Translations under genes and position numbers: made by a program
Part shown: piece by piece, positions 3,583 to 56,190 of the stretch
Numbering within the stretch: position 1 is the first letter of the stretch
How the letters are laid out: each line of letters opens with the position of its first letter
Assembly: GCA_046598345.1 (NCBI GenBank)
Contig: JBKJIT010000003.1
Coordinates: forward strand, 156,549-220,548
Reading direction: 5' to 3'
Source: Minisyncoccia bacterium
GTDB lineage: Bacteria > Patescibacteriota > Minisyncoccia > Phycocordibacterales > UBA918
Length of the DNA stretch: 64,000 nt
The notes under the pieces: model-generated
Database searches by the model: none
The model's input: the letters and a program-made list of their open reading frames with translations, nothing else
What the model was told of the DNA's origin: nothing

Positions 3583-3942
3583 TTACTTCTTCGGCGCGGC
3601 CGGTGGGACAGGAGCGGGTGCAGGCGCTGGAGCCGGCTTTGCAGCTGCGGGAGCTGCCGGTGCAGGTGCCATCGCTTTGGGTGCATCCTTGGCCGGAGCT
3701 GACTTCTTCGCCTTCTTCGACTTCTTCGCTTTCGCCTTCATGGCCTTCGCTGGCGCTTTTGCGGTCGCGGGTACCGCTGCCGGTGCAGGTGCCACAACTT
3801 TCGCTGGTGCCGCGGCGGCCGAAGGTGCTGCTGCCGGTGCAGGTGCCACAACTTTCGCTGGTGCCGCCGTTTGCGCCATGGCCGAGCTCAACATACTTGC
3901 GGTCGCCAGAGCGGCCGTAAGGTACAACAGGGACTTCTTCAT
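3583..3942 (-). CDS. secreted low-complexity Ala/Pro/Lys-rich protein (signal peptide plus APAKVVAPAPAA repeats and a lysine-rich tail)
   Basis: ATG at 3942 is preceded by AGGAGG; N-terminal MKKSLLYLTAALATASMLSSAMA looks like a signal peptide; the ORF track's longer form starts at an upstream GTG; local GC is clearly higher than the window average. Confidence 0.55.
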   Translation of the reverse strand: MKKSLLYLTAALATASMLSSAMAQTAAPAKVVAPAPAAAPSAAAAPAKVVAPAPAAVPATAKAPAKAMKAKAKKSKKAKKSAPAKDAPKAMAPAPAAPAAAKPAPAPAPAPVPPAAPKK

Positions 3943-4652: not shown

Positions 4653-6872
4653 TCATTCCATATGGAGATCTTTGCCAAGTGTCAGAATCTTTTCGCGAAG
4701 AAGGGGATACTCCGTAAGTTCGGAGTCAGTCTCTATAAGTAATTGTGCCTCTTTTCTCGCCGCCTCTACCATCTTTATATTTTTAATCGCCTCCATGCCC
4801 AGGTCGGTGAGCCCCCACTGCTTCATGCCATAGAGTTCACCCGAGCCCCGGAGCGCAAGATCGAATTCCGCGAGCTCAAATCCGTTCTTCGCAGTCGTGA
4901 GTGCCTTGAGGCGCTCGAGGGTGCGTCCACTTTTTCCTGTGCTGTCTTTTGAAGTTACCGCAAAGCAGTACGCTTGGTGCTCACTCCGAATCACTCGCCC
5001 GCGAAGCTGGTGGAGTTGCGAGAGGCCAAATCGCTCTGCGCCTTCAATAAGAATATTAGTTGCGTTTGGCACATTGACGCCCACCTCGACAACCGATGTT
5101 GCGACTAGAATGTCGATGTTGTGTTCAAGAAACCGCTTCATCACGTCATCCTTTTCCTTCGGAGTCATTTTACTGTGGAGGATGCCAATGCGTGCAGTCT
5201 TAAACACTTCCTTTTTGAGTCGCAGAGCCTCTGCTTTTACTGACTTGAGCTGTAGCGCATTTTCTTTTAATGGGTCAGGTTCATCAATGCGCGGGCAGAT
5301 TATGTATGCCTGTCTTCCAGCTTTGATCTCGCCCTTCATATGTTCGTACACCTCAGCAATTTTAGTGGGAATCACGACTTTAGTGATGATGGGCTTTCGT
5401 CCCTTGGGCATTTCGTCGAGAAGGGAAATATCGAGGTCCCCATAGACGGTCAAGGCAAGCGTTCGAGGGATAGGAGTCGCCGTCATGGAGAGGAGGTGCG
5501 GCATACGAGTATCTTTCTTCGCGAGCGCACGCCGTTGCGAGGTCCCAAAGCGATGCTGTTCGTCGATAATGACATGCGCCAGGTGTTTGAATGCAACTGA
5601 TTTGTAGATCAGGGCATGTGTGCCGATAAGAATAGGAATTTCTCCATTCTGCACCCACTTAAGGAGCTGTGTCTTTGAGATTGTCGTTGGCTTTGAGGGA
5701 TTCGTCTTTGAAGGGAACTTCATGCAGCCGCTTCCTGTAATGAGTCCAATCTGAATTGGGAGGTGCTTAAAATATTCGATGAATGACTCGAAATGCTGTT
5801 TCGCAAGGATTTCTGTGGGTGCCATGTAGGCAACTTGGAGATTCCCGTATTCGAGAGAACCCACGGACCTCACGGAGGTCCGGCCTCCGTGAGGATTTAA
5901 ACCTTCCGGTGGCCTCGAGGTGGCGACGGCGTACGCGGTTGTGGCAGCGACCGCCGTCTTTCCGCTTCCCACATCTCCTTCGAGAAGTCGTGACATCGGA
6001 TGCTTCCCGGTGAAGTCCTTCAGCATTGCTGAAATGGCCCGCGTCTGTGCGTTCGTGAGCGGGAACGGGAAGCGAGAGGTGAATGCCTTGATGTGCTCTT
6101 CTTCAGTTTTAAATTGGTAGCTCGTCGAGACGGATATTTGGGCGCGCTCCTTTGCTTTTGCGAGCTGGATGCCAAAGACCTCTTCAAAGGCGAACCGCTT
6201 TCGTGCACTCTCTGCATGTTCCGCTTTCTTAGGAGTGTGTATCCAAATGAGCGCTGTACTAAGTACGGGTAGGTTGTATCGTTTGAGCACTTCGCTAGGT
6301 ATTGGGTCAGCGAGCTTCTCAAGGACGCCTGCACTAAAACACTTTTGCACCGTATGAAAAAACCATTTTGAGGTCACGCCCTTGGTTTCTCGGTATACGG
6401 GATAGATAGTCTCGTCTAAGTTTTCGGTGTTTTTGAAAATGGAATCGTGTCGGTCAATGGGAAGGCTTTCTAACTTTTCAATTTCAGGATTCGCGAGGTA
6501 GAGCTTTCCGTCACTCCCTGTCACTTTTCCCGCGAGCTTTACGTACGTGCCATCGGTGAGCATCTTTGCGATGTACGGTTGGTTAAACCACATGATCTTG
6601 ATTCTCGCTGTGCCATCCTCAACCCAGCCTTCTGAAATCGGTACGCGACTCTTCCACGATTTACGAGTGTTGAGCCCGCCAATTTGTCCATAGACCACCG
6701 CATCCTCTCCCTTTGTGAGTGAGCCAACAGATTGAATCGATGAAATATCCTCGTAGCGCTGCGGTACATGGAGGAGTAGATCTTGCACAGTTAAAACGCC
6801 TAAGCGTTTCAGAGCCTTTTGATGGATCTGATCAACTCTGAAATGGGAAGTAAGGAGATCGTGAGGCGACAC
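4653..6872 (-). CDS. recG: ATP-dependent DNA helicase RecG
   Basis: GDVGSGKT Walker A, DEQHRFG motif II, LSMTATPIPRTL, and an N-terminal wedge-like region beginning ...DLL..P.RYED. The track ORF runs to 7127, but that extension has no internal Met and contains the 6923-6945 hairpin; a GTG at 6872 is proposed as the start (uncertain). Confidence 0.85.
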   Translation of the reverse strand: MSPHDLLTSHFRVDQIHQKALKRLGVLTVQDLLLHVPQRYEDISSIQSVGSLTKGEDAVVYGQIGGLNTRKSWKSRVPISEGWVEDGTARIKIMWFNQPYIAKMLTDGTYVKLAGKVTGSDGKLYLANPEIEKLESLPIDRHDSIFKNTENLDETIYPVYRETKGVTSKWFFHTVQKCFSAGVLEKLADPIPSEVLKRYNLPVLSTALIWIHTPKKAEHAESARKRFAFEEVFGIQLAKAKERAQISVSTSYQFKTEEEHIKAFTSRFPFPLTNAQTRAISAMLKDFTGKHPMSRLLEGDVGSGKTAVAATTAYAVATSRPPEGLNPHGGRTSVRSVGSLEYGNLQVAYMAPTEILAKQHFESFIEYFKHLPIQIGLITGSGCMKFPSKTNPSKPTTISKTQLLKWVQNGEIPILIGTHALIYKSVAFKHLAHVIIDEQHRFGTSQRRALAKKDTRMPHLLSMTATPIPRTLALTVYGDLDISLLDEMPKGRKPIITKVVIPTKIAEVYEHMKGEIKAGRQAYIICPRIDEPDPLKENALQLKSVKAEALRLKKEVFKTARIGILHSKMTPKEKDDVMKRFLEHNIDILVATSVVEVGVNVPNATNILIEGAERFGLSQLHQLRGRVIRSEHQAYCFAVTSKDSTGKSGRTLERLKALTTAKNGFELAEFDLALRGSGELYGMKQWGLTDLGMEAIKNIKMVEAARKEAQLLIETDSELTEYPLLREKILTLGKDLHME

Positions 6873-6922
6873 GTTTCTATAGTACCAGATTGGAAGAAAT
6901 TGAAAGAATACAAAAGAAAAAG

Positions 6923-6945
6923 CCGGCGCAACGTGCGCCGGCTTC
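6923..6945. terminator. hairpin agccggcgcaacgtgcgccggct, likely terminator of the 6955..7563 gene
   Basis: 10-bp GC-rich stem directly downstream (minus sense) of the stop at 6955. Confidence 0.5.
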
Positions 6946-6954
6946 AAATCACGT

Positions 6955-7563
6955 TTACACCCGAGTCTTCCTTGCGGCAACAACGAGCTGTCCGTTCGAG
7001 AATCCGAACGTGACTTCGGTGTCAGTAGTGAGGCCACGGGCCGTGAGATGTGGTATGGGACGATATCGCTCTCCGGTGTCCAAGCGCTTGCGCAAACTGT
7101 CTTCACAGAGTTTCCGAAGCCTATCAAGTGAAGGAACTTCCCGCGCCTTTAATGATACAAAGAGGGGAGTGGCGTTCCGGGGAATGTCTTGGATCAAGAT
7201 CATTAGTCCTTCGCGGGTAATTCGATACGCTCCTTCCGCGAAGAAGTGCTCCGCGGCTGTTAGTGTGTCGGCGTATACTCTTGCCCACTCCGCTGCTTTA
7301 CGTAATGTTGACCCTGAAGGGACAGTCAGGGGTTCAACCTCAGCGCGAATCACGAGGAACCATTCAGAAGTAAATAGGCGCGTGGGGGCTTCTTGCACTT
7401 CTTCTCGTTGTTGATAGAGACTCATCGCGGGGAGAAGAACAAGAAAGAACATCACTGCTAACTTCGCAAACCCCTCTCGATCGTTACTCATGAGTGAAGC
7501 GAGGCACATTGCAAATAGCACAGAGTACCAAACCGCACTTGTTTCAGTCAGTATCTTTTTCAA
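6955..7563 (-). CDS. hypothetical membrane-anchored protein (202 aa)
   Basis: N-terminal hydrophobic segments (AVWYSVLFAMCLASL, MFFLVLLPAMSLY); no named motif recognised. Confidence 0.5.
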   Translation of the reverse strand: MKKILTETSAVWYSVLFAMCLASLMSNDREGFAKLAVMFFLVLLPAMSLYQQREEVQEAPTRLFTSEWFLVIRAEVEPLTVPSGSTLRKAAEWARVYADTLTAAEHFFAEGAYRITREGLMILIQDIPRNATPLFVSLKAREVPSLDRLRKLCEDSLRKRLDTGERYRPIPHLTARGLTTDTEVTFGFSNGQLVVAARKTRV

Positions 7564-9642: not shown

Positions 9643-9769
9643 ATTTGCGATCCTACAACGAAATTTCCGTTTTGTATAGTGGCCCTGGTAGTTACCGAAA
9701 ATGATAGTTCTAAACATGCGTTTGAATCTATGCTATTCTGGGTCGCATTCTCATGTATATCTGGGATAT

Positions 9770-9890
9770 GGAGAGTTGGCTGAGTGGATCAAATTGTATG
9801 GGACATAATTTGATCTGACTGAAAGGAAGTGGACGAACTTGTTCGACCACGTAAAGCCACCTTGAAATGAACAATGGAGAGTTGGCTGAG
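9770..9890 (+). repeat. two extra copies of the first 15-18 nt of tRNA-Ser (GGAGAGTTGGCTGAG...), at 9770-9787 and 9876-9890
   Basis: the string (AT)GGAGAGTTGGCTGAG occurs three times at 9768, 9874 and 9991; only the third continues into a complete tRNA; copy 2 is followed by tRNA-like hairpins and ends ...GCGGTCTCC, so it may be a pseudo-tRNA. Confidence 0.55.
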
Positions 9891-9992
9891 CTGCGTGAAG
9901 AAGAAACTGCTTTCTTCTGAACCGGTACTTGTACCGGACCACTCAGTCAACAAGCCGCGCAAGCGGTCTCCATATGAACGAAGTGAATATAT

Positions 9993-10078
9993 GGAGAGTT
10001 GGCTGAGTGGTCGAAAGCACCTCACTGCTAACGAGGCAGGGTCAAAAGCCCTCGCGAGTTCGAATCTCGCACTCTCCG
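9993..10078 (+). tRNA. tRNA-Ser(GCU), type II with long variable arm
   Basis: acceptor GGAGAGT/ACTCTCC, D-arm GCT...AGC, anticodon loop CTGCTAA, variable arm CAGGGTCAAAAGCCCTCG, T-arm GCGAG-TTCGAAT-CTCGC, discriminator G; A31xC39 mismatch noted. Confidence 0.8.
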
Positions 10079-10653: not shown

Positions 10654-11163
10654 TCAGACGACTTTTCCCAAATCGTTCGGGTCAGACAGATCCCCAACAA
10701 TGACCACTCTGCCTTCGCTTCCGACAGACATGAGCATTTCAATAGGTGACGGCACGCGAGCTACTGTACCGGGTGGCATCCAAAATCCCTGACGGTCAGC
10801 CCCTGTCTCAGCGCAGTTCCAGCCGAGACATCCAACAAGACATCGATCATCCTTGCTATACCGCACGGCATACTCAGGAACCTCGAAGGGTTCCTGTGGA
10901 GTGTAGAGCGTGACCGGGTCACCGACATGGATCGAGTTTTCGCACCATGCGCATCTGATCGACATTTTGGCGATGCAATCGAAGCAGTAGTCTGGCATGC
11001 CGTTCTCGGAGAGCGGCATGGACACCGTACGGCTTTGGCCGTGTGAGGTAATTTTGCCGGCCTTCTTGGTATTGTGTCCACAAACATTGGCGGTATACGT
11101 CTTGCGGAATGGATGTGAGAGGGCGAGCCAAAGGACTCGCAGACAATACACTATTTTATGCAT
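10654..11163 (-). CDS. Cys-rich hypothetical protein (CxxC pairs)
   Basis: ORF with CFDC...CAWC...C..C motifs; no family recognised. Confidence 0.4.
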   Translation of the reverse strand: MHKIVYCLRVLWLALSHPFRKTYTANVCGHNTKKAGKITSHGQSRTVSMPLSENGMPDYCFDCIAKMSIRCAWCENSIHVGDPVTLYTPQEPFEVPEYAVRYSKDDRCLVGCLGWNCAETGADRQGFWMPPGTVARVPSPIEMLMSVGSEGRVVIVGDLSDPNDLGKVV

Positions 11164-20964: not shown

Positions 20965-21185
20965 CGGATTCTCGCACACTTCTTTGTTGCTTCAGTCATA
21001 GTATGTCTCGTCGTATATTAAATACGCCTCAACAGACTATTTCCTTTGCGCCTCGAATTGTACTGAGAATCCGCTAAACGCTTTTGTTATATGTGCTGTC
21101 CACAGCAGTAAGCCAAATTGTAACGAAAGCTCGTATAATGGATGTAACCACACTACGTGGAGCAATAATTATTTATTTATAAATT

Positions 21186-21680
21186 ATGATGAAAATCAAT
21201 ACATTCAAACGAGGCTTCACTCTCATCGAGCTCCTCGTAGTAATCGCGATCATCGGTATCCTCGCATCCGTTGTTCTCGCATCACTAAACACAGCTCGAA
21301 GTAAAGGGTCTGACGCAGCTGTTAAGTCAAATGTGAACGGTATCCGTGTTGGTGCAGAAGTTGTGTATGACAACCTTGCTAACAGATACAGTTCCGTAGC
21401 TGATGCGTATTCAGCAGCATGCGGGGCGATAGCTATAGCAACTCCAGCTACCTTTGTATTTAACGATTCTAATGTTCAAGCACAAGTAGATGGTGCAGTA
21501 ACTGCTGGAGGTCTTGAATCGAAATGCGCTTATGGAGCAACTTTCTATGTAATCGCTGTTCCTCTTAAGTCCACACCAACTCAAGCATGGTGTGTTGATA
21601 GTACTGGTGCAGCAACTACAATCACATTTGCAAACTTCACTGCGGCAACAGATGTGACGTGTGCACTTGCAGGAACGTAA
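21186..21680 (+). CDS. type IV pilin (prepilin with class III signal)
   Basis: N-terminus KRGFTLIELLVVIAIIGILASVVLASL, the G/F cleavage-methylation motif. Confidence 0.8.
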   Translation: MMKINTFKRGFTLIELLVVIAIIGILASVVLASLNTARSKGSDAAVKSNVNGIRVGAEVVYDNLANRYSSVADAYSAACGAIAIATPATFVFNDSNVQAQVDGAVTAGGLESKCAYGATFYVIAVPLKSTPTQAWCVDSTGAATTITFANFTAATDVTCALAGT

Positions 21681-21696
21681 AAAATACAATTTTGAC

Positions 21697-21724
21697 AAAA
21701 AACACCCTTTAAGGGTGTTTTTTG
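21697..21724 (+). terminator. rho-independent terminator aaaaaacaccctttaagggtgttttttg after the pilin gene
   Basis: hairpin followed by a T run. Confidence 0.6.
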
Positions 21725-21791
21725 TTTTCCACAAGGTTTATGTTTAGTTACATAATTATTTGTCGTTGTACGCTACACTTAATTATTCTTA

Positions 21792-22277
21792 ATGAATCAA
21801 AATTCAAACATAAGAGGTTTTACTTTACTCGAGCTCCTCGTAGTAATAGCGATCATCGGTATCATGACATCAATTGCGATGATGGCGCTCTCTCAGTCAA
21901 AAAATAAAGGTGGAGATGGAGGCGTGAAACAAAATCTTGTGAATGCGCGAGCGCAAGCAGCTTTTTACTATAATGGTTCCGCAACCAGCTCAGATTCCTA
22001 CACCGGGGGAGTCTCGGGGAATATGTGTAACGATGCGCGTAATGGTGTGTATCGACAAGTGCAAGCTGCCGCAAGGGCTGCAGGGTTAACTCCTCAGGGA
22101 ACTTATGCGAATAATACAACGGGAACGGCTTCACTTGAGGTGTGTCATGCTATAGCTACTCAATTCGCAATTTGGGTTCCTCTCAAGCAGGGTAATGGAT
22201 GGTGTATTGATAGCGCTGGTGCTTCTAGAAATACAGCCCCTCTTGACCAGGCAGGAAATCAATATGTTTGCCCTTAA
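21792..22277 (+). CDS. type IV pilin (second copy)
   Basis: N-terminus IRGFTLLELLVVIAIIGIMTSIAMMAL. Confidence 0.8.
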   Translation: MNQNSNIRGFTLLELLVVIAIIGIMTSIAMMALSQSKNKGGDGGVKQNLVNARAQAAFYYNGSATSSDSYTGGVSGNMCNDARNGVYRQVQAAARAAGLTPQGTYANNTTGTASLEVCHAIATQFAIWVPLKQGNGWCIDSAGASRNTAPLDQAGNQYVCP

Positions 22278-22312
22278 AACGATCATAGAATGGAGACTTA
22301 CTGGTACGTCCC

Positions 22313-23025
22313 ACTCCATAGGTCTGCCCTATGAGAACACAATATTTGCTGTTAGCATAGTGGTATGGCAAATCGATATTACAATTTCGTAGAACATGAG
22401 TTCTACCACATATACAATCGTGGAAATAGTAAGCAAACTATTTTTAAGGAAGAAAGTGATTACGAACGGTTTAATAAACTGCTGTATATTGCTAACAATA
22501 ATAAGCGCTTCGTGCTTCGGGAGCTTGATACCGGCAATGTGTTTGACTTAGAACGAGAGGATCAATTGGTACACATAGGAGCCTATTGCCTCATGCCAAA
22601 TCATTATCACCTCCTGCTCACTCCTGCGCAAGAAAATGGTATTCCACGTTTCATGCGGAAACTTGCAACAGGTTATGCAGCTTATTTTAATAAAAAATAT
22701 TTTAGAACGGGAGGGTTGTTTGAGGGACCCTATAAAGCACGCTGGGCTGATTCGGACAGATACTTAAAGTACCTCTTTTCGTATATTCATCTCAACCCAT
22801 ACAGAAGTAAAGATGAAAATCATAAAAACACCATTGTGGCATCTAGACTTAATGAGTATCGTCATTCGAGTCTTCCTGATTACCTGGGAGAAAAAAGACA
22901 ACTTGGAAAAATCCTCTCGTACAAAGCATTTCCTGAATACTTCACTACAGTTAAAGATCAAATAGGGGAATTGATGGAGTGGCTTGACTATCAGGAAATT
23001 TAATGTGCCATAGGGCTGACCTATG
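22313..23025 (+). mobile_element. RAYT-like transposase gene flanked by short CATAGG-N5-CCTATG hairpins (REP-like), inserted between pilin gene and pilD
   Basis: hairpins ccataggtctgccctatg (22315-22332) and ccatagggctgacctatg (23008-23025) bracket the 22365..23003 ORF. Confidence 0.55.
22365..23003 (+). CDS. IS200/IS605-family Y1 (HUH) transposase, REP-associated tyrosine transposase (RAYT)-like
   Basis: LMPNHYHLLLTP (HuH motif) and RYLKYLFSYIHLNPY (the catalytic-Tyr YIHxNP motif), characteristic of PF01797-type transposases. Confidence 0.8.
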   Translation: MANRYYNFVEHEFYHIYNRGNSKQTIFKEESDYERFNKLLYIANNNKRFVLRELDTGNVFDLEREDQLVHIGAYCLMPNHYHLLLTPAQENGIPRFMRKLATGYAAYFNKKYFRTGGLFEGPYKARWADSDRYLKYLFSYIHLNPYRSKDENHKNTIVASRLNEYRHSSLPDYLGEKRQLGKILSYKAFPEYFTTVKDQIGELMEWLDYQEI

Positions 23026-23053
23026 TAAATAGGGACGAGGGTAGAATGGAGGG

Positions 23054-23896
23054 ATGGAAATTTTTGCCGAAAATTTTGGATATTTTTGGTACATCATGGT
23101 GTTTGTATTTGGGGCGATTGTCGGGAGTTTTCTCAACGTGGTCATTTACCGCATTCATACGGGACGTTCGCTTAATGGGCGTTCTCACTGCATGTCCTGT
23201 GGTACGACGCTCAAGTGGTATGAGTTATTTCCCATTTTTTCATACCTCGCACTTAGGGCTCGTTGTCGGCATTGTGAGGCATACATCCCGAATCGGTATC
23301 TCGTAGTCGAATTGCTTACTGGCGCGTCGTTTGCATTTTTATGGTCTCTCTCAGCTCCTAACCTCTGGCTTTTTGCTTTATATGCTGGGCTCATCTCGGT
23401 GTGCATCATTATCGTAGTGTACGACATGCGACACACCATTATTCCTGACGAACTCACCATTCTTGTGGGAGTATTCGCTTTTCTCCTTCTTGGGTATGAA
23501 TACATGGAAACAAGGCAGGTAATCCCACTCCTTTACGACCTGCTTGCGGGAGTGAGTGCCGCGCTCTTTTTTGCTGGACTTTGGCTTGTGTCGAAGGGAC
23601 GATGGCTTGGCCTAGGAGACGCGAAGCTCGCGCTCCCACTCGGTATTATTGCAGGGTATTCTTCCGCGCTTTCCATGGTCGTCCTATCGTTTTGGGTCGG
23701 TGCTCTTATTAGTATTGTGCTCCTCTTGATCCAGAGCTTCCTCAGAAGGTGGAAAACTCACTTACCGTATCTCCCCGAAACCATTACAATGAAGAGTGAA
23801 ATCCCATTTGCTCCGTTTCTTATCGTGGGATTCATACTCGTTCTCTTTTTTCATGCAAATATTTTCACCATCACGAGTTACCTCTTACCGCTTTAG
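23054..23896 (+). CDS. pilD: prepilin peptidase PilD (A24 family)
   Basis: N-terminal CxxC...CxxC zinc motif (CMSCGTTL...CRHCEAYI), IVVYDMRHTIIPDE, GLGDAKL. Confidence 0.85.
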   Translation: MEIFAENFGYFWYIMVFVFGAIVGSFLNVVIYRIHTGRSLNGRSHCMSCGTTLKWYELFPIFSYLALRARCRHCEAYIPNRYLVVELLTGASFAFLWSLSAPNLWLFALYAGLISVCIIIVVYDMRHTIIPDELTILVGVFAFLLLGYEYMETRQVIPLLYDLLAGVSAALFFAGLWLVSKGRWLGLGDAKLALPLGIIAGYSSALSMVVLSFWVGALISIVLLLIQSFLRRWKTHLPYLPETITMKSEIPFAPFLIVGFILVLFFHANIFTITSYLLPL

Positions 23897-23912
23897 GAAG
23901 GGTAGAGAAGGT

Positions 23913-24488
23913 GTGCGTGGGTTTACGCTCCTTGAGATGATGGTCTCTGTTGCCATCATTGCTCTCATCACCGCCCTTGTGTTGGTAAAATTTGGTGCGT
24001 TTGAAAGTACGACGCTTCTTAAGGGCGCGGCGTACGAGCTCGCGCTTTCAATCCGCGACGCCCAAGTCTACTCAATCAGTGTGAAAGGAAATGCAGGCGG
24101 GTTTGATTACCCCTATGGGGTACATTTTGCAAAGTTAGGGACCACCTACACGTTTTTTAGAGATGAAAATTCTCAATCTGGTCAGCTTTTCTATCTTGGT
24201 GGCACAGACACTCCTCTGAGTAGTCCAGTGGTCGGTAGGTCAATGCGTATAGAAGACTTATGTGTGTATACCACAGGAAGTCCAAACACATGTGTACCTG
24301 TCGATGCGCTCGATGTTTCATTCAGGCGGCCGGAATTTTATGCTTTATTTTATGCTGCCCAAGGAGAAGGAACATCGTATACTTCTGAGATAACGAAAGC
24401 CCAGGTAAAGCTCAAATCCACGAAGGGGACGGACATTTGGGTAATTGAGATCGGGCTATTGGGACACATTTCGGTGTTTAAGGGATAA
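23913..24488 (+). CDS. pseudopilin / minor pilin (prepilin-type N-terminal domain)
   Basis: GFTLLEMMVSVAIIALITALVL. A GTG at 23913 gives leader MRGFTLLE, preceded by AGGAAGG and lying just after the pilD stop; the track's ATG at 23796 would overlap pilD by 100 nt. Confidence 0.6.
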   Translation: MRGFTLLEMMVSVAIIALITALVLVKFGAFESTTLLKGAAYELALSIRDAQVYSISVKGNAGGFDYPYGVHFAKLGTTYTFFRDENSQSGQLFYLGGTDTPLSSPVVGRSMRIEDLCVYTTGSPNTCVPVDALDVSFRRPEFYALFYAAQGEGTSYTSEITKAQVKLKSTKGTDIWVIEIGLLGHISVFKG

Positions 24489-30782: not shown

Positions 30783-30784
30783 TA

Positions 30785-30827
30785 ACAAGAACAAGAAAAG
30801 ACTGGCATGAACCAGTCTTTTCTTGTT
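30785..30827 (+). terminator. terminator hairpin aacaagaaaagactgg-catgaa-ccagtcttttcttgtt
   Basis: 16-bp perfect stem immediately after the stop at 30782. Confidence 0.65.
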
Positions 30828-30848
30828 CTTGTTGCGGGGCCCGGAATC
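30826..30848 (-). repeat. isolated copy of the 3' end of tRNA-fMet (TCGATTCCGGGCCCCGCAACAAG in minus sense)
   Basis: cttgttgcggggcccggaatcga at 30826-30848 repeats the sequence at 30994-31016; the real tRNA lies about 150 nt away. Confidence 0.6.
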
Positions 30849-34140: not shown

Positions 34141-34302
34141 CATTTGTACTAAGTGCTTTCGACCCCACCTCACGTGCCCCCGGCATCGTTCCGGTTCGCA
34201 TTTAGACACTGACACAAAGCAGTTTGTGTCATAGAACAAAACACCATCATTTCATGATGGTGTTTTGTTCTATCTAACTGCGCGGCGGACGGGACTCGAA
34301 AC
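34141..34302. repeat. family-B repeat segment plus a 19-bp-arm hairpin (34231-34273) plus an isolated, minus-oriented copy of the last 28 nt of tRNA-Asp (34274-34302)
   Basis: TTGTACTAAGTGCTTTCGACCCCACCTCAC and ATCGTTCCGGTTCG match the 1975-2055 repeat; taactgcgcggcggacgggactcgaaac is the reverse complement of GTTTCGAGTCCCGTCCGCCGCGCAGTTA; hairpin gacacaaagcagtttgtgtc (34211-34230) recurs inverted at 35500-35521. Confidence 0.6.
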
Positions 34303-35011: not shown

Positions 35012-35307
35012 GCGGTGGTAGCTCAACTGGTTAGAGCACCCGCCTGTAGACGTGCAGCTTTCTTTCCGAAAGGGGGATTGAAACTTTCCGGGATAACGGT
35101 GAAGGCTAAGTTTGCCATTTGGCGAATATGCGAATACCGTGGGAACCTTATACACAAAAACACATAGTATAAGGGCGCCGTAGAGACTAGATACCGGGAT
35201 ATCTAAAAGTTTGAAAAAACTCATGATAAAGATATAGTCCACGCCACTATGAAAATAGTGGAAGCAGTGCACGCGGGAGGTTGCGGGTTCGAGTCCCGTC
35301 CGCCGCG
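35012..35307 (+). tRNA. tRNA-Asp(GUC) interrupted by a 222-nt group I intron between anticodon positions 35 and 36
   Basis: exons 35012..35047 and 35270..35307 join to GCGGTGGTAGCTCAACTGGTTAGAGCACCCGCCTGTCACGCGGGAGGTTGCGGGTTCGAGTCCCGTCCGCCGCG plus discriminator G. This matches E. coli tRNA-Asp closely (loop CTGTCAC, G73, C38, G10); 5' exon ends in U, intron ends in G. Confidence 0.8.
35048..35269 (+). mobile_element. group I intron (small, ORF-less) in tRNA-Asp
   Basis: internal guide GTGCAG at intron nt 5-10: CAG pairs the exon CUG(U.G) to form P1 with a U.G wobble at the splice site, and GTG pairs the 3' exon CAC (P10). An R-like element tagagactag lies at 35181-35190 and an exact S element aagatatagtcc at 35229-35240; a P9-like hairpin ccactat-gaaa-atagtgg precedes the terminal G at 35269. 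Confidence 0.75.
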
Positions 35308-35342
35308 CAGTTAGTAAAAGTCGGCCTTGTGCCGATTTTTTC

Positions 35343-35452
35343 GTGCGCGTCAGGGACTCGAAGAGGTTGCCAGCTATTTGTGACCGAAGGAAACAAATAG
35401 CGACAACCTGTACTGAACATGTAATGTTCGAGTCCCGTCCGCCGCGCAGTTA
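35343..35452 (+). repeat. family-A element L1: an inverted tRNA-Gln-like 3' piece, then GTTGCCAG plus hairpin plus core CGACAACCTGTACTGAACATGTAATGTTCGAGTCCC, ending in an exact copy of the tRNA-Asp 3' end (35426-35452)
   Basis: 35366-35436 aligns with 46480-46540 across a roughly 70-nt homologous span; the last 27 nt equal tRNA-Asp positions 53-73 plus CAGTTA. Confidence 0.6.
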
Positions 35453-35457
35453 AATAA

Positions 35458-35493
35458 ACCTAAAAACCACAGTCTAAGGACTGTGGTTTTTAG
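35458..35493 (+). terminator. terminator hairpin cctaaaaaccacagtc-ctta-gactgtggtttttagg
   Basis: perfect 16-bp stem; followed by hairpin gaacacaaactgctttgtgttc (35500-35521). Confidence 0.6.
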
Positions 35494-35654: not shown

Positions 35655-35730
35655 TGGAGCCGTCTCCGAGGATCGAACTCGGGACCTTTGCGTTACGAAT
35701 GCAATGCTCTACCAACTGAGCTAAGACGGC
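35655..35730 (-). tRNA. tRNA-Thr(CGU) with encoded CCA
   Basis: reverse complement GCCGTCTTAGCTCAGTTGGTAGAGCATTGCATTCGTAACGCAAAGGTCCCGAGTTCGATCCTCGGAGACGGCTCCA; loop TTCGTAA; A31xC39 mismatch; a family-B repeat piece lies downstream at about 35570-35625. Confidence 0.8.
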
Positions 35731-36924: not shown

Positions 36925-37060
36925 TAAGCAAACTACTTTGCCTGCATCCGGGATTGAAAACCAGAGTCATGTCGCTTGCGACAGACGAGGTCGGGTAGGA
37001 GGTTCTTGGCGAGCCTAGAAACCGGACACCAATCCCGTGAGGTGGCTCAAAAAAATTAAA
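36925..37060 (+). other. tRNA-like remnant ending in a degenerate copy of the tRNA-Thr 3' end (ccaatcccgtgaggtggctca), followed by the strong palindrome at 37058-37097
   Basis: the last 21 nt resemble TTCAATCCCGTGAGATGGCTCA of tRNA-Thr(GGU); no complete cloverleaf can be drawn. Confidence 0.3.
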
Positions 37061-37097
37061 TATCCTATAGTGTCCGGCCGGACACTATAGGATATTT
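37058..37097. terminator. perfect 20-bp-arm palindrome aaatatcctatagtgtccgg / ccggacactataggatattt
   Basis: read directly from sequence. Confidence 0.6.
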
Positions 37098-37288
37098 ATG
37101 TAGGAGAATGGCATTGTGTAGAAGCTGCGAAGTATCAGAAAAGTAGTAAAAGAAGTAAGTGTTGTGTGATAGTCTAATATATCCCGTGTTTTCACAGGAT
37201 GGTTTTTGCTCTTTAAGATGATAGGAAAGAGTGGGGCCTTGCAAGAAGCTTCATGTGCTTCATGAATGCAGCCCAGCCTCGCCACAAT

Positions 37289-47329: not shown

Positions 47330-47420
47330 GATTTTTCACCTGTCAATTAATGTAGCATTGCAGCCTTCAATAGACAGTATCCACCTCCCATGCAGCAATC
47401 TAGACATTTTAAAAAATGAT

Positions 47421-47477
47421 GTTGCCACAGGGTAACCCTGTGGAGGACATGTTGTCACAAGGTAACCTTGTGGAGGA
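47421..47477. repeat. two tandem REP-like palindromic units GTTG(C/T)CACA(G/A)GGTAACC(C/T)TGTGGAGGA centred on GGTAACC, preceded by tagacattttaaaaaatgatg
   Basis: the same units occur at 48938-48964, 56133-56159, 56166-56190 and 58118-58140. Confidence 0.7.
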
Positions 47478-48913: not shown

Positions 48914-48964
48914 AAGTTCGAACATGTCCTAAACAGCGTTGCCACAGGGTAACCTAGTGGAGGA
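48914..48964 (+). repeat. composite intergenic repeat: AAGTTCGAACATGTCCTAAACAGC followed by one GGTAACC palindromic unit
   Basis: matches 56084-56159 and 57353-57370. Confidence 0.65.
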
Positions 48965-56083: not shown

Positions 56084-56190
56084 AAGTTCGTACATCGTCC
56101 CAAACGGCAATTTAGACATTTAAAAAAATGATGTTGTCACAGGGTAACCTTGTGGAGGAAATGATGTTGTCACAGGCTAACCCTATGGAG
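56084..56190 (+). repeat. composite intergenic repeat: AAGTTCGTACATCGTCCCAAACGGC plus tagacatttaaaaaaatgatg plus two GGTAACC-type palindromic units
   Basis: about 80 nt nearly identical to 47401-47477. Confidence 0.7.

Follow-up and report, generated by a model that had tools for sequence, protein, structure and literature searches.

The biochemistry of Y1 enzymes, which combine an HUH motif with a single catalytic tyrosine, is well established for TnpA_REP of E. coli and for the IS608 and ISDra2 transposases, with the structures 4ER8, 2VJV and 2XM3. To our knowledge, work on the REP-associated tyrosine transposases (RAYTs) and the repetitive extragenic palindromic sequences (REPs) has been confined almost entirely to Proteobacteria and Cyanobacteria, and the literature that we searched contained no paper linking RAYTs or REPs with the candidate phyla radiation. 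In the described systems, a RAYT gene is present once, is passed on vertically and has its own REP family at its flanks (PMC5581495, PMC6006769). The group called TnpA_Y1 subclass 2.1 corresponds to RAYT Group 1 of Bertels et al. 2017 and to the TIRYTs of Di Nocera et al. 2013 (PMC6006769), and the TIRYT genes, in the available text of PMC3733652, are presented as having flanking inverted repeats, some of them self-complementary and moderately repeated, with the consensus GGGGWSAS. Here, we describe a Y1 gene flanked by two small hairpins in a 64-kb window, by which we mean the whole 64,000-nt stretch analysed from a Minisyncoccia bacterium (contig JBKJIT010000003.1), and compare it with these systems. 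We conclude that it is probably a single-copy, vertically inherited, or “domesticated”, class-2 Y1 HUH nuclease/transposase gene of the RAYT/TIRYT type, carried in a compact and self-contained cassette of about 710 bp that consists of a hairpin, a promoter-like box, the gene and a second hairpin.

The Y1 open reading frame runs from 22365 to 23003 on the + strand, encodes 212 aa and is the only copy of such a gene in the window. A first-pass annotation of this DNA had read the motifs LMPNHYHLLL and YIHLNPY in the protein and had bracketed the gene with CATAGG-N5-CCTATG hairpins; both motifs are indeed in the frame (H80 at 22602-22604, H82 at 22608-22610 and Y140 at 22782-22784), and both hairpins are there, with the upstream one displaced by one base, to 22316-22333. 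The product is listed as a RAYT/TIRYT-like TnpA_Y1 class 2 HUH protein with N79-H80-Y81-H82, Tyr140 within YIHLNP, and a conserved S168-S169 and C-terminal tail. The upstream hairpin, CATAGG-tctgc-CCTATG, lies on the minus strand at 22316..22334 (core 22317-22333) with the centre of its loop 40 nt before the ATG, and in its “REP orientation” on that strand it reads TGTTCT-CATAGG-gcaga-CCTATG-GAG. The downstream hairpin, CATAGG-gctga-CCTATG, lies on the + strand at 23008..23026 (core 23009-23025) with its loop centre 14 nt after the stop codon, and its gene-proximal box ATGTGC overlaps that codon. The pattern CCATAGG-N5-CCTATG has exactly two sites in the 64 kb, at 22316-22333 and 23008-23025, with none expected from 100 shuffles, and these two sites are separated from the ATG by 31 nt and from the stop codon by 5 nt, respectively; the relaxed form CATAGG-N3-8-CCTATG returns the same two sites only, against 0.02 expected. 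The left loop TCTGC is one mismatch away from TCAGC, the reverse complement of the right loop GCTGA, and therefore the two hairpins are inverted copies of each other.

It is this duplication, together with the comparison across genomes, and not thermodynamic stability, that gives the flanking hairpins their significance. An Rfam scan of the whole window at gathering thresholds returned no match at any hairpin, and a promoter and terminator scan of 21000-24000 flagged neither of the two, with its counts at the level of shuffled sequence. A strict hairpin scan of the window (apex GG/CC and at least 6 of 7 pairs) found 5 sites against 2.7 in shuffles, and therefore that criterion alone shows no enrichment here.

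With regard to the protein, it belongs to the IS200-like Y1 HUH superfamily, given its Pfam match, its HUH motif, its single catalytic tyrosine on a later helix and its HUH fold. The profile search returned PF01797 (Y1_Tnp) at 34.9 bits, above the gathering score of 23, with E = 1.9e-8 over residues 65-142. Across 30 aligned homologues, H80, H82, Y140, N144, P145 and S168-S169 are invariant, and the C-terminal F-P-x-Y-F...E-W-L segment is invariant or nearly so; the HUH motif is NH[FY]H family-wide, NHYH being the version found in the window. The AlphaFold model built from the homologue alignment (pLDDT 80, pTM 0.82) has the order of strands and helices of Y1 transposases, and its top PDB match is 4er8_A, the E. 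coli RAYT with a REP hairpin (probability 1.0, TM 0.61 on the target), followed by IS608, ISDra2 and IS200 transposases, with 2vic, 2a6m and 2xm3 among the top matches. This fold comparison is the sole informative evidence from the PDB because the sequence searches against it, with the single protein and with a profile, gave no significant match (E ~0.4 to ISDra2 TnpA). The protein ends in a conserved C-terminal tail of ~65 aa, modelled as three short helices, which may hold a divergent short helix-turn-helix (HTH); a Pfam scan of the protein at E <= 1 returned PF01797 only, with no Bac_DnaA_C, HTH_23 or HTH_28 in the tail. In the scheme of Quentin et al. 2018, the Y---NP arrangement places the protein in class 2, on the RAYT side, and the combination of NH[YF]H, Y[IV]HLNP and “SS” resembles TnpA_Y1 subclass 2.1, as judged by the published motif table and not by the authors’ own profiles. 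A tblastn search of plasmids found relatives at ~30% identity only, labelled “transposase”.

The gene belongs to a large family, with at least 7,980 matches in a protein collection clustered at 90%, most of them seen on one contig, with 1,021 clusters at 50% identity (E <= 1e-30), and, among species-representative genomes, with at least 587 loci that were confirmed. The closest homologues carry the names Candidatus Kaiserbacteria and Paceibacteria, which points to a host from the Patescibacteria/CPR. The flanks were analysed in the best 80 of these at least 587 loci, all from metagenome-assembled genomes (MAGs) labelled as of Patescibacteria type. Neither the gene nor its two-hairpin layout is confined to the window, since both recur across the family: a hairpin with a 5-nt loop stands on both sides of 52 of the 82 genes with complete flanks, and in a positional test made without any preselection of hairpins, with the loop centre set 35 nt upstream of the ATG, 26 of 84 genes formed 6 or more of the 7 stem pairs, whereas nearby offsets gave ~1 of 84. 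On the 3′ side, the same test gave peaks at +4 (21 of 85 genes) and at +14 (10 of 85) from the stop, and the gene in the window has offsets of 40 and +14. The stems are 6-13 bp long with a 5-nt loop, the apex is almost always AGG-N5-CCT, and the commonest loops are TCTTG upstream and its reverse complement CAAGA downstream. The lower stem varies between genomes and matches between the two flanks of one gene (examples are TGCGTTAGG...CCTAACGCA, CTCCGCTAGG...CCTAGCGGAG and ACCCCATAGG...CCTATGGGGT), and the cores of cognate flank pairs agree with 0-1 mismatch in one orientation. Family-wide, the inverted orientation fits better in 27 cases and the direct one in 18, the locus in the window and its orthologues being inverted. 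REPIN-like doublets, in which two inverted hairpins combine into one long hairpin, stand beside the gene in L002 (9840-9900), L010, L032, L033, L057, L061, L077 and L080.

Between the upstream hairpin and the ATG, most of the 80 loci also have a TGnTAnAAT box, its end 6-7 nt upstream of the start codon. This extended -10-like box is represented in the window by TGTTAGCAT, at 22350..22358 on the + strand, which matches the family consensus and ends 6 nt before the ATG, and the upstream hairpin is located where the -35 box would be expected. This match to the consensus suggests that the Y1 gene has its own promoter and would be transcribed into a leaderless or near-leaderless mRNA. We also considered a conserved partner gene or a shared neighbourhood for the whole family, and this was rejected because the neighbours form many lineage-specific syntenic groups; most of the 80 homologues are in unrelated lineage-specific contexts, with surface proteins, dnaE, rpoB or rplJ. 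As a separate observation, seven Y1 homologues of 45-52% identity (L019, L058, L037, L041, L028, L009 and L073) lie within 0-4 kb of PilB, PilT or PilC genes in an otherwise different context.

Hairpins of this type are also dispersed away from the genes. In 1.23 Mb of related loci, there are 53 AGG-N5-CCT hairpins with stems of at least 6 bp at a distance of over 300 nt from the gene, against 4.2 in shuffles, and about a dozen of these 53 have the same stem as the hairpins that flank the local gene, mostly within 1-2 kb of it. In one case, the hairpin at position 3566 of L060 is cognate to the hairpins of a paralogue in L031, a separate contig from the same MAG. The window itself contains the family of GGTAACC-centred palindromes that the first-pass annotation had noticed, with five copies, all of them on the + strand and all intergenic, in three regions, against 0.15 expected, and with the consensus GTTGY-CACAGG-GTAAC-CYTGTG-GAGGA. 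The first two form an intergenic tandem pair, GTTG-CCACAGG-gtaac-CCTGTGG-AGGA at 47421..47447 and GTTGT-CACAAG-gtaac-CTTGTG-GAGGA at 47451..47477; the third, GTTGC-CACAGG-gtaac-CTAGTG-GAGGA, is intergenic at 48938..48964 and has a degenerate stem; and the last two form another pair, with GTTGT-CACAGG-gtaac-CTTGTG-GAGGA at 56133..56159, again intergenic, followed at 56166..56190 by the degenerate GTTGT-CACAGG-ctaac-CCTATG-GAG, a hybrid of the CACAGG and CATAGG stems. This last copy ends CCCTATGGAG, as had been reported, and shows 78% complementarity to the region of the upstream flanking hairpin (22313-22339).

The link that had been suspected between these palindromes and the Y1 gene is borne out by the flanks of the orthologues, which are CATAGG-gttac-CCTATG in L005 (68% identity), CACAGG-gttac-CCTGTG in L006 (66% identity) and CATAGG-gtcac/gttac-CCTATG in L007 (64% identity), and also by L082, in which the flanking hairpin is exactly CCACAGG-gttac-CCTGTGG. 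These orthologue flanks share with the five copies of the window the GTTAC/GTAAC loop, the CAYAGG stems and a 5′ box of GTTG type, and when flanking and dispersed copies are read in one orientation, they follow the common layout 5'-TGT[TG][GC][TC] - CAYAGG - G-N-N-N-[CA] - CCTRTG - (GAG or TAW). From the GTTAC/CAYAGG flanks of the orthologues, the GGTAACC family would be the ancestral hairpin type of the lineage of this gene, and the loop of the copies at the gene appears to have changed in the window and in L002. In addition, both tandem pairs share a further 35-45 nt upstream, TCCCAWRCRGCAATYTAGACATTTWAAAAAATGAT (47386-47455 and 56098-56167, 87% identity over 70 nt), and therefore the repeat unit is of ~100 nt and not a bare hairpin; both copies also stand upstream of + strand genes, namely a GNAT acetyltransferase gene and a GrpB-family gene.

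A further hairpin, CCTCACGGAGG-tccgg-CCTCCGTGAGG at 5868..5894 (no strand assigned), is possibly related, its membership being deduced from the type of its apex alone, and it is found in frame within recG (4653-7127, minus strand). There, a 33-nt in-frame insert with a perfect palindromic core of 11-bp stem and an AGG-N5-CCT apex (-14.1 kcal/mol, z = -5.2) encodes NPHGGRTSVRS between the Walker A motif and motif Ia. The closest RecG, of 88% identity, and most other RecG homologues are without this insert. L099, from a genome that has a 74%-identical Y1 orthologue, carries a different perfect hairpin, TTGAAGACTC-tggga-GAGTCTTCAA (10973-10997), at the same recG codon position, and other relatives have inserts of ~50 aa at the same RecG position. 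This position in a core repair gene resembles a hot spot for the insertion of palindromic elements, and REP insertions within replication and repair genes were already known, according to the available text of PMC3733652.

By analogy with E. coli TnpA(REP) and with IS608/ISDra2, we propose that the Y1 protein would bind its cognate repeat when this is folded into a hairpin in single-stranded DNA, such as the template of the lagging strand, and would cleave and rejoin the DNA beside the hairpin through a 5'-phosphotyrosyl intermediate at Tyr140, so that low numbers of hairpin copies could be seeded elsewhere over evolutionary time. The conserved apex and loop would serve as the recognition surface, and the variable lower stem, together with the GTTG-type box, could set the specificity for each copy. 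Binding at the upstream hairpin may also regulate the expression of the Y1 gene itself, and such autoregulation is plausible because this hairpin overlaps the promoter region at the -35 position.

Several points weigh against this reading of a domesticated RAYT/TIRYT-type gene with its own repeats, and we suggest keeping them in mind. The Y1 activity would have to be taken by analogy from the biochemistry of E. coli TnpA(REP) and of IS608/ISDra2. The equivalog NCBIfam NF047646 (REP_Tyr_transpos) matches the same region as PF01797 with 35.7 bits, below its cutoff of 80, and the foot tetranucleotide GT[AG]G was not found, with GTTG, GTTC or TGTG in its place in the orthologue group of the window and none in the family profile; the gene is therefore RAYT-like, as the first-pass annotation had put it, and is no canonical RAYT. 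The flanking hairpins are weak as single-stranded DNA, at -3.9 and -4.2 kcal/mol (z ~ -2.3), and their exact sequence is absent from the rest of the 64-kb window. The dispersed GGTAACC copies, which differ from them in stem and loop, could belong to a paralogue elsewhere in the genome. The genome-wide spread of the hairpins appears to be modest, with the extra cognate copies in the related loci mostly within 1-2 kb of the gene, and, compared with RAYT/REP systems, the copy number here is apparently low, with no sign of hundreds of copies in the 64 kb and the related loci. Finally, subclass 2.1, which the protein resembles by its motifs, has no nearby REP-like sequences according to Quentin et al. 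(PMC6006769).

Among the alternatives, the one that survives best, while still being unlikely to replace the domesticated Y1 gene as an explanation, takes the hairpins mainly as transcription or RNA elements, that is, as an element that insulates or terminates transcription downstream of the highly expressed pilin genes, an operator for the promoter of the Y1 gene itself and a 3′ stabiliser, which the protein may bind only for its autocontrol. Such roles would agree with the fixed spacing, with the hairpin centred at -35, the -10-like box 6-7 nt before the ATG and the other hairpin at the stop codon, and also with the T-rich sequence that the family profile shows 3′ of the upstream hairpin; moreover, REPs elsewhere act as terminators and mRNA stabilisers, as far as the available text of PMC3733652 goes. 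However, they leave unexplained why hairpins of the same type are present at unrelated intergenic sites and in frame in recG, and why a complete HUH/Tyr site has been kept under purifying selection, and the hairpins of the window, at about -4 kcal/mol and without a T-run, are not called as terminators. This alternative and the domesticated Y1 gene are, in any case, mutually compatible.

The Y1 gene lies within a type IV pilus cluster with the order PilM, two unknown genes, PilB, a response regulator, PilT, PilC, two pilins, Y1, PilD, four minor pilins and ligA, and its flanking genes are a pilin gene (21792-22277, N_methyl) on the 5′ side and pilD (23054-23896, Peptidase_A24) on the 3′ side, in agreement with the earlier placement between the second pilin gene and pilD. 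The orthologues in L002, L005, L006 and L007, of 64-75% identity, likewise have the last pilin gene on one side and pilD on the other, with the same minor pilins and ligA beyond pilD, and the homologue in L047 (47%) is directly 5′ of pilD, the minor pilins and ligA, with no pilin match in the 219 nt upstream. The neighbours have diverged to a similar degree in these loci (PilD 50-63%, PilC 71-78%, PilT ~83% and LigA 55-68%), and among the Y1 orthologues the synonymous divergence (dS) is saturated and the ratio of nonsynonymous to synonymous divergence (dN/dS) is <=0.13. The same slot, the matching divergence of the neighbours and the low dN/dS argue for vertical inheritance, and the Y1 gene would be an old resident and not a fresh insertion; other family members are in other contexts that are equally stable within their lineages. 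A scan of metagenomes based on PilD returned 14 loci, including loci without the Y1 gene: L086 and L087 (PilD 60-63%) have a reversed pilin gene in its place, and in L088, L089 and L098 the pilin gene is followed directly by pilD. Therefore, gain or loss has occurred at the pilin-pilD junction at least once, and among the 14 loci there was no informative case of an “empty site” with a solo hairpin. The description of the gene as inserted inside the pilus operon is thus right as to its position and would mislead only if taken to mean a recent event, given that the same slot has been kept at 47-75% identity under purifying selection.

This comparison largely refutes the very improbable alternative of an active IS200-like insertion sequence that transposed recently into the pilus operon and has the two hairpins as its left and right ends. 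The cassette is, of course, as compact (~710 bp) as would be expected of such an element, has subterminal hairpins, its own promoter-like box and a Pfam Y1_Tnp match, and some relatives of the operon (L086-L089 and L098) are without the gene. In contrast, the slot is also filled in at least 5 other genomes at 47-75% protein identity with saturated dS, and there is one copy in the window. The seven pairs of within-genome paralogues, each paralogue with its own hairpin type, are 44-65% identical, none being near-identical, and the highest pairwise identity among the 80 loci is <=86%; judging by these paralogue identities, there is apparently no trace of recent gene copying. In addition, the tyrosine motif is the Y---NP of class 2 and not Y---Q, the protein has 212 aa with a conserved tail against the ~150 aa of IS200 TnpA, and the flanks are inverted here and in the orthologues (27 inverted and 18 direct in the family), whereas the ends of IS200/IS605 elements are direct.

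Equally hard to credit is the idea that, in a Kaiserbacteria-like lineage, the Y1 nuclease was kept in the operon to work with the pilus and the DNA-uptake machinery, processing or marking single-stranded DNA at lineage-specific hairpins that would serve as “self” tags similar to uptake sequences; it would then be more than a domesticated transposase, and its place in the operon would be no accident. The weakest alternative, recruitment of the protein to the biology of the pilus or of competence, where it might process single-stranded DNA as it enters the cell or rearrange the pilin genes that stand in tandem, would explain the retention of the gene and draws on the stable position in several species, on the 2 to 3 tandem pilin genes directly 5′ of Y1, which vary among the orthologous loci, and on the 45-52% homologues beside PilB or PilC (L019, L058, L037, L041 and L028), but it is most improbable, since most of the 80 homologues are in unrelated contexts, the operon of close relatives works without the gene, no CATAGG/CACAGG hairpins are present between the pilin genes, and the cassette has its own promoter-like box. 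With the gene taken as a domesticated RAYT/TIRYT-type resident, the simplest account of its place in the pilus operon is a historical accident that then went to fixation.

The window has some other features. A group I intron is called by Rfam at 35052-35261 (51.4 bits, with a gathering score of 50), and beside it are duplicated and inverted tRNA-like segments at 34238-34300, 35287-35314 and 35426-35489, which include a 27-nt exact repeat, GTTCGAGTCCCGTCCGCCGCGCAGTTA, as well as a tRNA at 35658-35730. Three long perfect palindromes, at 2171-2223, 30784-30833 and 37057-37098, have arms of 24, 22 and 21 nt and are unrelated in sequence to the AGG-N5-CCT hairpins; the first of them directly adjoins a tRNA gene (2220-2292). 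At 3623-3874, 54-nt units with many GCN/GGN codons are repeated in tandem and probably encode an Ala/Gly-rich repeat protein. Finally, 9766-10010 contains three copies, ~110 nt apart, of a 22-nt sequence similar to a tRNA 5′ end, ATATGGAGAGTTGGCTGAGTGG, although Rfam calls a single tRNA there (9993-10078). The three copies could represent either long-arm tRNAs in a cluster or fragments of tRNAs.

Compared with the known systems, this is an ordinary kind of element that comes from a large, apparently undescribed, branch of the RAYT-related family. The arrangement of the gene and its flanking repeats corresponds to a REPtron or TIRtron. With RAYT/TnpA_REP of E. coli (PDB 4ER8), it shares the Y1 HUH fold, the Y---NP motif, a single or low copy number and vertical inheritance, and with the RAYT REPtron it shares a palindromic repeat of its own on both flanks, related repeats that are extragenic and also inside genes, and REPIN-like doublets beside some homologues. 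In contrast to the RAYTs, its identity to 4ER8 is as low as 11%, its score with the NCBIfam RAYT model is below the cutoff, its conserved C-terminal tail is of ~65 aa, and its hosts are Patescibacteria with ultra-small genomes; in contrast to REPs, the hairpins of the family are short, with an AGG-N5-CCT apex and, in the orthologue group of the window, a GTTG/GTTC/TGTG foot instead of GT[AG]G. With IS200 (subclass 1.1), it has in common the PF01797 superfamily, a size of ~0.7 kb, subterminal hairpins and an upstream hairpin near the promoter and start codon, whereas IS200 has ~150 aa, Y---Q, several near-identical copies and direct ends, none of which holds here. With TnpA_Y1 subclass 2.1, it shares NH[YF]H, Y[IV]HLNP, an “SS” proximal tail, a length of little over 200 aa, low copy number and divergent paralogues, and it differs from subclass 2.1 and the TIRYTs in having AGG-N5-CCT hairpins, not GGGGWSAS, as its flanks and in showing no HTH domain by Pfam.

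The long-term retention of such genes at fixed chromosomal positions in streamlined genomes of ~1 Mb argues for a function. Moreover, since the copies of the protein and their AGG-N5-CCT hairpins diversify together, the family offers many natural pairs for the study of how Y1 proteins read hairpins, and, by joining motifs of subclass 2.1 type with flanking hairpins, it could bridge the “TIRYT” and “RAYT” categories.

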